From assembly GCA_963765145.1 (NCBI GenBank), contig CAVXVG010000028.1, positions 77,479 to 141,478 of the forward strand: a stretch of 64,000 bases of DNA, in the 5' to 3' direction. This DNA comes from Parachlamydiales bacterium. GTDB lineage: Bacteria; Chlamydiota; Chlamydiia; Chlamydiales; JAJFMK01. The notes below the pieces were generated by a model. The model was not told the DNA's origin. It was given only the letters and a program-made list of their open reading frames with translations, and searched no databases. A program made the translations under genes and the position numbers. Each line of letters begins with the position of its first letter. Within the stretch, counting starts at the first letter, position 1. Shown piece after piece: positions 28,562 to 32,728 of the stretch.

Positions 28562-30043
28562 ATGGCAACAGGGATCTTTTCTACTCACAATGCATTTCCG
28601 ATGAGAGGGGGCTCACAGCCCTATGCCGAATCTCCTTGGAAATTCACCGACGGTCTCTGGGATCGAATAAGTAAGAAAGAGGATGAGGCTGAGCCCTACA
28701 TATTTAAAAAATGCCTCGTCGTGCCGGATGACCAGGAATTTGATGATGTTATACGTCGTTTCTCCGAGTGCAAACCGAAGGACCACTATATTAGACGGAT
28801 TGATGCCGTTTATAAAAGTCATCTTACTAATGGTTTTAAAAATCATCTCCATAAAATTAACGGATTAGCTAATGATCAAAACTTTGCTTCCCAATGGAAG
28901 CAAGAACCGACAGGAGTGACCCAACGGGAAGAAGTCATCAAACGATGGAAACATATTACTGATAGCAGTCCGCCTATTAAAGCTCGGAACAATGGAAATG
29001 AAACAACCTTAAAGGATGTTCGAATATTGGACTTGTGGCATGGCTTTAACACGGGATGGAAGGGAAGATCGATTTGCCATCATAATTTTGTTGTCATACC
29101 AGACGGGACAAAAAAAGTGAACGTTACCGATGGAGGATGGTATGGAAAGGGTATCTACGGCTCTTCTACTGCTAAATATGCAATAGAGGAGTATTGTGAC
29201 ATTAAAGATAAAGACGGCAAGAAAACGAAAACATACAATCCTCATGTATTATTATGTTTGTTCGCCTGCAGGGTACCATTTCCTGTGGTTAGTGAAGATG
29301 GGAAGATATTTGAAGGTCAGGAGCACGCTGAGCCGGGGCATGATGCCCATTACATTCCTATAAATAGGAAGTATCGACCTTGTGGCGAAAATGAAATGGC
29401 TATGTGTGATGAACTCGCTGTTTTTGAGTCCATACAGACATTGCCAAAATTTTGGGTAGAGTTTCAGTCAGAGACTTCTGTCCAGAGCAAATTAGATCAG
29501 ATTACGACGGCAGAAGATTTAGCAGATTATTTGATCTATTATTTACAAAAGCACGATTCCACTTTAGATGACGAAACAAAAAAGGTTCTGAAAGGTAAAT
29601 TGTCATATCTTTATTCAAGAATTTCTAAGGGGAAAAATGAATATATGGAACATGACAAAGCGTTTGTGAGGTTTTTTAAATCTGGGATCCAAAAAGACGC
29701 TACCGTTACATTTACCCCGGCTGAAGCAGCCAAATGGCTGCAATTTATGATAAATAAAGAAACCATAGTTGAAATTGAAAAGCCAGTCGAGATTGTAAAA
29801 GAGATTGAAAAAGAACGTGATCTGAATAAAGAACCCTCTTTGAAATTGCTTTGGGAACTGATCAAACGACCTTCTGTGATAGTTAGCGGAGGAGGGGCGC
29901 TGCTCGTGGTGGGGCTTGTTGCCTATGTGGTGCGAAATTATTTCCTAGGGCAATCGGATTCACAACCACCCCCACGACCTCCAAAACCGGTAGGTTTCAG
30001 ACTCCCAGACATTTCATTTGCCCCCCATGGAGAAAGATCATGA
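28562..30043 (+). CDS. PARP-like (H-Y-E) ADP-ribosyltransferase-domain protein with C-terminal TM helix
   Basis: LWHG, GWYGKGIY, AKYA and DELAVFESIQTLP motifs; hydrophobic VIVSGGGALLVVGLVAYVV near the C-terminus. Confidence 0.75.
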   Translation: MATGIFSTHNAFPMRGGSQPYAESPWKFTDGLWDRISKKEDEAEPYIFKKCLVVPDDQEFDDVIRRFSECKPKDHYIRRIDAVYKSHLTNGFKNHLHKINGLANDQNFASQWKQEPTGVTQREEVIKRWKHITDSSPPIKARNNGNETTLKDVRILDLWHGFNTGWKGRSICHHNFVVIPDGTKKVNVTDGGWYGKGIYGSSTAKYAIEEYCDIKDKDGKKTKTYNPHVLLCLFACRVPFPVVSEDGKIFEGQEHAEPGHDAHYIPINRKYRPCGENEMAMCDELAVFESIQTLPKFWVEFQSETSVQSKLDQITTAEDLADYLIYYLQKHDSTLDDETKKVLKGKLSYLYSRISKGKNEYMEHDKAFVRFFKSGIQKDATVTFTPAEAAKWLQFMINKETIVEIEKPVEIVKEIEKERDLNKEPSLKLLWELIKRPSVIVSGGGALLVVGLVAYVVRNYFLGQSDSQPPPRPPKPVGFRLPDISFAPHGERS

Positions 30044-32728
30044 CGATGAGAGTTGCAAGAACATTATGGCAAAACTTTCCTTTGCAGGTCAAAAGAAGGA
30101 TAGAAGTGCCCTCCGCTGTACCAATCGTGAGCGCCTTGTCTTATAAGAGGCATATTCCAGCCTTAGTCGTTTCAGAGCTTCAAGACAAGAGATGGAGCTG
30201 GCTGAAATGGGGTGGCGCCTTGCTTGTAGGAGTGGTCGGAGTAGGTGTGCAGAAAACGGTTTTTGCAGAACCTCCCCCGCTTAAGACTGGGAATTTTTAT
30301 GGAAGAAAAAAAAGAGCTGAAGGACCTGGAAGATTATCTTCTCGAAAACAAAATCGTCTATTTACTGGGACGGACTGAAGCGGGTAAAACCAGAATTGCC
30401 TTAGAATACAGGGAGAAGTACAGGTATAAAAAACTTTTTTTTATCGATTGCAGATCTCAAGAGAGCTTTGACAAAGGGCTCAAGGAGCTTGCGCAATCGA
30501 GTCAGTATGCAGGAAGTACGCTCGATAAGGGACGCGACATTTTAGCGAGAACGAAAAATTCCCTTCTGATCCTTGATGGGGTGGATCGAGCCAAGCTTGC
30601 CGATTGGGTCCAATCGCTTCTAGATGTAGAGGTTGCTGGACATGTTATCATCACGGGTAGGTATCCTCTCTCTTCTGACCGTTTCCCTAGATTCCGAATC
30701 TTTGAGGCTGAAGTTGAAACAGATGAGCTCAGCGCGATTTTTAATCAACACCTCTCCCCGCACCATCAAAAAATATTCGAACAGTTAGAGCAAAAAGATA
30801 AGGAGAAATTGATTTCTGTTTTGGGGAGGTCTTTAGCCCTTATCGAAATCGCAGCCGAGACTCTTGGCTTTTTATGGAAACATCCCGATCAGCCAAAAGA
30901 TCTCACTTCCCTGATAAACAAGGTGAGTTCCCTCGAGCCAAAGACGATCCATGAGTTGATGCAAGGAAATGCTCAAGCCTATGAAGACAGCATCAAGGCA
31001 GTGAGGGAGGCTGTAGGGGGGCCTAGTCTTGATGAGAAGATGGTGGACTTTGTCCTTTACTTTTATGCCTTCCATTTTATGCACAACAGGATCGCCCTGC
31101 CTGTAGGCAAAGAGGCATTGAGAGATCTGTTGATCAACCTTACAAAAAAAAACGATCAATCGATTGATGTACCAGGCGGCTCCATTAAGATTAGCTGGAG
31201 CGACACCTTTGATTATATTTATGAGGCTGAAAGCCATGAGGATATTTATAGCGCCTTTTTAAGAGTGACAATTAAATTACACGAGCAGGGCCTTATAGAT
31301 ATGGATGAAAAGGGGGTATGGATACCGCTTTCGCTCCGATGGTGGGTGATCGACGATTTTTATAAGAGTGCAGATAAGATTTTCTTGGAACAAGTCACTC
31401 CGAAGTTGAAACAAATCGGCAAGGTCAATCCTCAAAGAGTGTTTTATGGAACATTGGAAAAACGGTTTGCCTGGTATTTGTCCGGTTTTCGTTCCTACCT
31501 TGACCAGATCTCCAAAAGCAATAAACCTGATATTCAGCAGCTCTCTCTTTTAATCGGTTTTTTGGAACTCGTCAAAAAGTTCAACCTCTCTTTGGAACTT
31601 CAATCAGAGATCATCAACGGCCTGCACTTATGGAATGAGACAAAAGTTGTCCTCCAGCAGTGGCAGAAAGCCTCTTCCCCTCTTTCCCTGAAGGAGATCC
31701 AGACCCTCTCTTTTGAGCAGCTTGAGATATTATGTGATCAACTCTTGCAAGAGGGTGGGAAATATATTCCGGAAACTCTCGCCCTCTTGGAAAGGCTAGG
31801 CAATGATTGCGAGGAGTCAAATCCTGCAAAAGCTGAGAAACTCTTGCTAAAGGCCAAGGTGGCTGGAAGCCAACAGGCTCTCGTTCAATTGGGGTGTCTT
31901 TATCAATGGATGGCAAAGAGAGAAAAAGACCCGAAGCAAGCCGATTTATTGGAAAAGGCCAACAACGAATATTCATTATTTCTTGAGAAGAAAGAAGATT
32001 CAAATGGCAGTGTCCATTATGATAGGGCCCAATGTTATCCAAAAAATGGGGAAGGGTTCAAAAAAGCTGTTTTAGATTTGGAAAAAGCGGTCGAAATAGA
32101 TCCTTCCAGGATTTTATATAGACTATCTTTAGCCCATTATCTGAAGGAAAAGGGAGATCCCAGTCGAGCAGGACGAGAGGAACTCATGGCTAATGGGCTT
32201 TCTCACATGGAGAAAACTCCTAAGCCTATTTCTAAAGAATACAAGGATCTTATTTTAGAATTTTTACAGGCTGATAAAAAATTTGAGTGGGATGAGTATA
32301 AAAAGAGGTGGCGGGGTCACACAATGAAGGATCGAGGGGTCCTGTTTGGAGAGATGCTCCTCTATCACCCGTCGATCGAAGAGGTTCTTTTGCATGGGTG
32401 CCACTTAAGCGATGAGGGGATGGAAGCTATCGCAAAAAGCCTCGCAACCAACAAGTCGATCAAAACTTTGCGTTTGGATTGGAACAACGAAGTGACAGGC
32501 AGGGGGATCCGTGCGCTGAGCGATGCTTTGAAAGCAAACCGACAAATTAGCGAGCTTTCTCTCCGCAACTCTAACAAAATTGCCGTTGCCGATATCCTCT
32601 ATTTAATCGATCTTGCCCCCTCGCAGTTGAAGATCAATCTGTCTGGTTCTGCAGTTGCCAAAGATCACCCAGACGAAATTGAGAAGCGGGCCAAAGCCAA
32701 AGGAATCAAAGTTATTTTGAAGGAATAG
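30040..32728 (+). CDS. STAND/NB-ARC NTPase with TPR/Sel1 and RI-type LRR domains; frameshift in the A8 run at 30306..30313
   Basis: Joined frames give NFYGRKKELKDL; Walker A GRTEAGKT, Walker B LLILDGVD, VIITGR, LGRSLAL; TPR-like DLEKAVEIDP; LRR-like LSDEGMEAIAKSLATNKSIKTLRL. Confidence 0.75.

Follow-up and report, generated by a model that had tools for sequence, protein, structure and literature searches.

We examined a window of 64,000 nucleotides from a Parachlamydiales bacterium (assembly GCA_963765145.1, contig CAVXVG010000028.1, positions 77,479 to 141,478 of the forward strand), in which two overlapping genes, orfA and orfB, are sandwiched between a rhomboid gene on the left and an rnz-like gene on the right. 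orfA is predicted to encode a PARP-like ADP-ribosyltransferase and orfB an NLR-like protein. The locus is laid out as follows.

27641..28435, plus strand: rhomboid gene, left core flank (PF01694, E 4.5e-27)
28562..30043, plus strand: orfA, 493 residues; PARP-like ADP-ribosyltransferase, helical linker, C-terminal membrane helix and 36-residue tail
30011..30043, plus strand: conserved orfA C-terminal motif I-[ST]-F-x-P-H-G-E-x-x, whose DNA carries GGAG (30029-30032) and the ATGA overlap
30040..32728, plus strand: orfB, NLR-like; 895 residues in the natural uninterrupted copy P0161
30040-30378 and 30245-32728, plus strand: the two frames in which orfB is read in the window
30306..30313, plus strand: A8 run where the two orfB frames meet, a probable assembly indel
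32920..33828, plus strand: rnz-like gene, right core flank; its Pfam matches are metallo-beta-lactamase folds

The name rnz comes from an initial annotation, and Pfam supports the metallo-beta-lactamase fold; together with PF01694 these matches bear out the location which that annotation gave for the pair. It had also read translational coupling into the junction of the two genes. The overlap is indeed present as ATGA (30040-30043), with GGAG 7 nt 5' of the orfB start, and is consistent with such coupling. Two genomes of the same genus, G001 and G002, keep the flanks without the pair: in G002 the rhomboid gene overlaps rnz, and in G001 the two are separated by a gap of 877 bases. The pair is thus a two-gene accessory insertion between rhomboid and rnz, as had been proposed. 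The insertion site is variable, because G001 carries a 158-residue fragment on the opposite strand (L050:6929-7405) in place of the pair. GC content at third codon positions is 0.37 in orfA, against 0.45-0.49 in the flanking genes; orfB, at 0.48, is not lowered. GC skew is positive (0.08-0.17) over 29001-33000 of the window and mostly negative in the flanks. Promoter and terminator counts at the locus were no different from those of shuffles.

P0161 derives from an assembly made independently; it shows no difference from the first orfB piece across 91 residues, nor from the second piece beyond the overlap. In addition, the assembly analysed here is prone to indels: frameshifts affect 13 of the 149 core orthologues that it shares with the 400 kb of G001 sampled. 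For these two reasons the break in orfB at the A run is most likely an assembly artefact, and other split-gene findings from this genome therefore need caution. Other copies of the orfB type, P0158, P0160 and that of genome G219, are uninterrupted. Reads in two runs contained three 151-base pieces of orfA and one more, and the A run was uncovered.

The two proteins

Two features of orfA carry its assignment.

28619..29476, plus strand: PARP-fold domain, about residues 20-305, with H160 (29039), Y199 (29156) and E284 (29411)
29876..29932, plus strand: membrane helix, residues 439-457, from hydrophobic helix prediction

On the single sequence, the Pfam family PF00644 matched at E 0.0018, under its curated cut-off. 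The fold was further examined in an AlphaFold model (pLDDT 79.8, pTM 0.84). All 39 Foldseek matches printed for it were PARP or tankyrase, the best at E 1.7e-10; the top ones were PARP4, PARP12 and tankyrase (E 1.7e-10 to 1e-9, TMq about 0.45). The H-Y-E triad is held by H160, Y199 and E284, the Tyr being presumably that of the GIY motif, and it is kept in 134 of the 147 family rows that cover all three positions. As modelled, then, orfA is a PARP fold with an intact catalytic triad and predicted enzyme activity, in agreement with the earlier PARP call, and the C-terminal anchor proposed with that call corresponds to the predicted helix at 439-457. Pfam searches of orfA at E up to 1 found PF00644 alone, with no WGR or PARP_reg match, and there was no PDB sequence match. 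The C-terminal part had no match in the four genomes searched, in a search run without a positive control. Its first 40 residues include 10 Ser, Thr or Pro; at least 12 are found in 55% of 145 family PARPs and 7% of genome open reading frames (ORFs), an enrichment that partly reflects the conserved start of the domain.

orfB has the following parts.

30040..30210, plus strand: Arg-rich, acid-poor leader, about residues 1-57; predicted from composition to be mitochondrial-presequence-like
30211..30270, plus strand: single hydrophobic helix ending V-F-A-E, about residues 58-76; possible stop-transfer anchor and peptidase site
30290..31333, plus strand: NB-ARC module (NBD, HD1, winged helix), with Walker A (30368-30391) degenerate in this copy
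31757..32179, plus strand: helical/TPR region, a short stretch
32312..32614, plus strand: RI-type leucine-rich repeats, 3-4 turns

Domains were called with hhalign and PDB sequence searches. Aligned to the full NB-ARC module, the orfB family gave a probability of 99.6 (E 1.9e-24, 295 columns), with NBD, HD1 and winged helix present in order. The PF00931 cut-off was passed by a paralogue and by the G219 orthologue, and orfB alone fell below it; the TPR and RI-type LRR signals were weak on the single orfB sequence and strong on the family profile. These results uphold most of the architecture first described, namely an N-terminal anchor, a STAND NTPase of NB-ARC type, TPR and RI-type LRR; its Sel1 component had no family match on orfB. 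No Pfam family, and hence no effector or signalling domain, matched the N-terminal piece. The NCBIfam name FxSxx_TPR was rejected: its match covers the NB-ARC start only and lies far below cut-off. The NTPase motifs that had been noted are partly there. GKT and the Walker B Asp are retained; Walker A is the non-canonical GRTEAGKT (GG replaced by TE/A), and other residues stand in for the GxP proline and winged-helix histidine. In four other members of the orfB family Walker A is canonical.

Recurrence of the pair and the families of its genes

The initial annotation had suggested asking whether the pair occurs elsewhere in the Chlamydiota, and the pair does recur. On contig C27 of the same genome there is a second pair, NLR first and PARP second, again with an ATGA overlap. 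The C27 NLR is a full-length orfB paralogue (24% over 671 residues), and in a quick tree the C27 PARP falls together with orfA (SH-aLRT 91, unstarred). In a distant lineage, P0002 is 36% identical to orfA with the same anchor and P0160, of 890 residues, is about 45% identical to orfB; each comes from an ENA contig of 10,711 bases, and the two very probably lie on one contig, as judged from the records. orfA, P0002 and P0144 all end I-[ST]-F-x-P-H-G-E-x-x, and P0001 keeps the G-E-x-x-stop register. Conservation of this motif preserves a ribosome-binding site for the next gene; the motif may also be a binding motif at the protein level. P0001 is 92% identical to orfA except for its last 25 residues, which differ and end in the same stop register; this divergent end suggests a recombination point or another downstream partner.

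To place the pair among its relatives, we sampled 70 PARP genes from 27 genomes. Two are fused to a STAND domain, and in 8 a STAND gene lies no more than two ORFs away; one further gene has a STAND neighbour by Pfam (L076). The corresponding background frequency for this genome is 48 in 2363 ORFs. The pair is co-inherited and not obligatory, since most PARPs are without a STAND neighbour and the orfB-type loci of genomes G242 and G398 are without a PARP.

The PARP family profile matched in 27 of the 400 genomes of the order that were scored, with at most 5 candidates taken per genome; G094 was left out of this scoring and of the phylum-wide orfB search. This genome has 7 full PARP paralogues and 3 weaker fragments, and the highest number of family matches in one genome is 29, in G219. 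The profile reaches 361 cluster representatives with an E value of at most 1e-30. Tails found among the 64 scanned of the top 150 include ankyrin (14), Sel1 (9), LRR (4), WD40 (2), SidE-PDE (2) and kinase (1). Judged from these sequences, the family has the pattern of polymorphic, eukaryote-like effectors, multicopy and with swappable tails. A membrane helix is found in only 5 of 150 representatives, the paired ones included. Fusion of the PARP domain to NB-ARC or NACHT occurs in 2 of the 7 paralogues here and in 5 of 150 representatives. The orfB subfamily, by comparison, is rare: 5 of 401 genomes matched, and the match in one of these, G003, is an unrelated NB-ARC start only. The phylum-wide search found no further orfB-type loci. 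The G219 orthologue ends 44 bases from its contig end.

Several other arrangements were seen around these families. This genome, with about 20 STAND ORFs in total, encodes single-chain PARP-ankyrin-STAND-TPR, PARP-ankyrin-NB-ARC and double NB-ARC proteins, the last with TIR (L004:7923-12527, L003:9767-12256 and L007:6597-10286). At L006:7860-14346 a PARP is followed by multi-frame ankyrin pieces and then by a SidD-like phosphatase with DUF294 nucleotidyltransferase and TPR. P0013 and P0041 have a SidE-type phosphodiesterase fused ahead of the PARP-like domain; the pairing of two activities recalls the SidE ubiquitin ligases, but the enzyme is of H-Y-E type. A cassette in four genomes of three families comprises a short PARP, a protein of 295-350 residues that has a ubiquitin-like domain and is Cys-rich in its C-terminal part, and a trypsin-NACHT-HEAT gene (L054:5328-12393; L057:5378-18717, twice; L076:314-7061; L068:912-6987); in L068 an ankyrin-patatin-STAND gene, first in order, replaces the trypsin-NACHT-HEAT gene. 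The cassette PARPs form one separate clade (SH-aLRT 97), which stands beside STAND genes in these four genomes. The family also extends outside this order: in a Francisellaceae metagenome-assembled genome, a related PARP is joined in one protein to TPR and, at the C terminus, to a weak NACHT-like NTPase (L124:5428-8817), and an integrase-like gene lies close by. No other locus came out of the genome-collection scan; metagenome locus scans found no related loci, and ESM Atlas matches, all below 0.9, are leads only.

The orfB leader

All six N-termini of the orfB family have 53-115 residues, Arg-rich and poor in Asp and Glu, before one membrane helix. Composition thresholds, chosen after the family sequences had been viewed, are passed by 6 of 6 family members and by 3 of 122 membrane-protein controls from this genome. 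An excess of Arg over Asp plus Glu of at least 3 in the first 40 residues is likewise common to the six; among genome ORFs 38 of 1707 reach it, and among family PARPs 1 of 145. Only the leader of P0158 aligns clearly with that of orfB (53%). Mitochondrial presequences are Arg-rich and acid-poor, and a following helix can route a protein by stop-transfer, sometimes with release by an inner-membrane protease (PMC12895284). The composition of the family leaders is consistent with such a presequence.

We compared nine leaders, those of the orfB family plus similar leaders of other genes. R-x-[FYL]-[SA] or R-x-F motifs are present in 7 of the 9, and a twin-arginine (Tat) motif before the h-region in none. 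An R-2/R-3 cleavage motif is present in four orfB-family members and not in P0161 or P0158. The hydrophobic moment of the orfB leader, 0.55, is equalled or exceeded by 16% of shuffles. Similar leaders also begin the neighbours of the G242 copy (a patatin) and of the G398 copy (a TPR protein), as well as a STAND gene upstream of a PARP in G219. Presequence-like leaders on such accessory genes (patatin, L132:6719-9721; TPR protein, L133:8785-10680; ankyrin-patatin-NB-ARC-TPR, L058:10448-14710) suggest that effectors addressed to mitochondria may form a broader class.

A possible role at host mitochondria

The reading that we prefer, tentatively and at somewhat short of even chances, is that the pair is secreted into the host and that the PARP-fold enzyme and the NLR-like protein act together at host mitochondria. 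Both proteins would leave the cell by a type III system; the genome has an export-gate gene (PF00771, E 6e-230) of flagellar or injectisome type, which, together with the annotation of a family member as coming from a Chlamydiae bacterium, fits an origin in the Chlamydiota. The C-terminal helix of orfA would insert in the outer membrane of an organelle with the enzyme facing the cytosol, where it would use NAD+ to ADP-ribosylate host proteins at that site. The supposed path of orfB is the presequence import route, halted at the membrane helix; NB-ARC-TPR-LRR would then be exposed in, or released into, the intermembrane space, or would stay on the surface if import stalls. Because the targeting leader sits where NLRs carry their effector domain, orfB could be a sensor or scaffold without a head of its own, placing or gating the PARP in trans, its TPR possibly binding the conserved orfA tail. 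In relatives the same PARP domain and NB-ARC or NACHT are fused in one chain. The initial annotation had left open an antiviral or a host-delivered module. Host delivery is favoured, because the pair has no PADLOC, phage, plasmid or viral match and shows a multicopy, eukaryote-like architecture and a presequence-like leader; that the suggested sensor/effector wiring is a dedicated one is put in doubt by the family PARPs, most of which have no STAND neighbour, and by two orfB-type loci without a PARP.

A number of observations weigh against joint action at mitochondria. The window copy of orfB appears to have a degenerate NTPase switch. None of the nine leaders is more amphipathic than its shuffles (fractions 0.10-0.69), R-x-F-S is absent from the window leader, the C27 member passes the leader thresholds only from its second Met, and the N-terminal part of the G242 protein was assigned by position only; the late choice of thresholds belongs here as well. 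The C27 PARP is without a membrane helix, and the 36-residue tail of orfA exceeds the 30-residue tail-anchor rule of PMC12313075. As for the pairing itself, 59 of the 70 sampled PARPs have no STAND fused or within two ORFs, and G242 (94% complete) and G398 (79%) have orfB-type loci with no PARP-family match. A binomial P of 0.004 overstates the association, because both pairs in this genome probably share one origin, and the common contig of P0002 and P0160 is known from records only.

These same counts give some weight to a reading that is possible but less probable, in which two host-directed effectors share an operon and work independently, like members of a tandem effector array. Besides being mostly without STAND, many family PARPs adjoin ankyrin, TPR or LRR genes; orfB-type genes stand beside a patatin gene in G242 and a TPR gene in G398, both with presequence-like leaders; and, with the topology as predicted, a membrane could separate the two catalytic bodies. 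Against independence, the pair persists at 36%/45% identity and through an order-reversing duplication, it sits in a core block as an insert of two genes with no array, and membrane-anchored PARPs are as rare as 5 in 150 with the paired ones among them.

An anti-phage system, in which the STAND protein senses a phage protein and activates a membrane PARP to drain NAD+ or modify a target, seems improbable. The combination of STAND with an NAD-consuming enzyme is a known defence logic, as in Avs or bNACHT systems; orfB has no effector domain of its own, the insertion site is variable, and relatives have PARP-ubiquitin-like-protease/NACHT cassettes. However, there was no PADLOC match for orfA, orfB or orthologues at E 0.001 (GajB at E 0.011 and Csx21 at E 0.027 on orfA were treated as noise), and none to the pair in phage, plasmid or viral contig collections. 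Up to 29 matches in one genome and eukaryote-like tails also argue against defence. By the positive-inside rule, moreover, a basic leader before the helix would place the orfB NTPase in the periplasm.

We give similarly poor prospects to host-directed proteins that are anchored in the inclusion or endoplasmic reticulum membrane, or that leave through Sec behind a long signal peptide cleaved at V-F-A-E, so that any likeness to mitochondrial proteins is incidental. V-F-A-E resembles a signal-peptidase site, the leaders fail to exceed shuffles in amphipathicity, and TatC is present in the genome. Yet all nine leaders are without a Tat motif and seven carry the Arg motifs; leaders of 53-115 residues that cannot be aligned retain one composition; and the single short helix is unlike the bilobed hydrophobic region of Inc-type proteins. 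Finally, a decaying or phase-variable locus, with orfB a pseudogene or switched at the A run, is very unlikely: of the five orfB-type copies in genomes, four are split, and the window copy has lost switch residues, but P0161 matches both pieces intact, three other copies are whole, and the assembly breaks core orthologues as well.

How does joint action at host mitochondria compare with known systems? STAND NTPases have been described as effectors limited to endosymbiotic or parasitic bacteria (Zhang et al. 2012, PMC3482391), and the same paper reports a PARP-related toxin domain in Legionella drancourtii, so that both classes are already known as endosymbiont effectors; the presence of repeats and the lack of immunity genes are shared as well. 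The passages of it consulted here have no chlamydial H-Y-E PARP family, coupled PARP/NLR pair or mitochondrial leader, and its Additional File 1 may list family members. The predicted likeness of the orfB-family leader to mitochondrial presequences is what is new here. Like NLRX1 (PMC10837482), orfB would have a mitochondrial targeting sequence in the N-terminal effector position and has RI-type LRRs; unlike NLRX1, a eukaryotic NACHT protein that reaches the matrix, it is bacterial, of NB-ARC type, and has TPR and a membrane helix. We regard this as an analogy of design, with homology limited to generic LRRs. The Legionella proteins Lpg0080 (Ceg3) and Lpg0081 (PMC9191684) are likewise adjacent effectors, a mitochondria-acting ADP-ribosyltransferase with a controlling partner; that partner is a macrodomain hydrolase and not NLR-like, and the likeness is by description. 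LpPIP of Legionella (PMC12313075) also uses a single C-terminal helix to place an effector on the mitochondrial outer membrane, although the activity of orfA is different and its tail is longer than the limit given there.

Among defence and receptor proteins, bNACHT (bioRxiv 10.1101/2022.07.19.500537) similarly joins a STAND NTPase to a repeat sensor, and the text of that paper has no mention of ADP-ribosyl or PARP. Unlike bNACHT and Avs, orfB has no PADLOC match or fused effector, and has a leader and a membrane helix. Fungal NB-ARC-TPR NLRs (PMC12258605), which carry patatin or other enzyme heads, share the NB-ARC/DUF7779 module class with swappable enzyme heads, but are self-contained host receptors, whereas in the pair the enzyme is a separate membrane-anchored gene; the heads are TIR and PARP in paralogues of this genome and patatin and trypsin in relatives. 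The bacterial PARPs HaPARP and CdPARP (PMC8120803) have the H-Y-E PARP fold with WGR/regulatory domains, which orfA does not have, and that review lists six phyla. The string 'chlamyd' is absent from it and from a second survey of ADP-ribosyltransferases, and a chlamydial symbiont genome paper mentions neither PARP nor NB-ARC. Literature searches, most subscription papers being outside them, found no full-text paper joining chlamydiae, PARP and NB-ARC, and no title or abstract start among the papers listed concerned the PARP family.

Overall, these data point to a large PARP-fold family in a bacterial order, with recurrent links to STAND NTPases through gene fusion or neighbouring genes. They also offer a testable answer on the function of endosymbiont STAND proteins, since one subfamily appears to be mitochondria-addressed and without an effector head. 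If true, bacteria would possess an equivalent of NLRX1, and a split NLR would be at work inside another organism's organelle. A bolder version, which we consider unlikely, is a two-part NLR circuit in the host: an NLRX1-like sensor imported into mitochondria would, by way of the conserved tail, switch on a tail-anchored PARP across the outer membrane, and ADP-ribosylation would then follow upon mitochondrial stress or virus infection. Chlamydiae protect amoebae from giant viruses (PMC9457554), and such a circuit, if it exists, could be one mechanism behind that protection.

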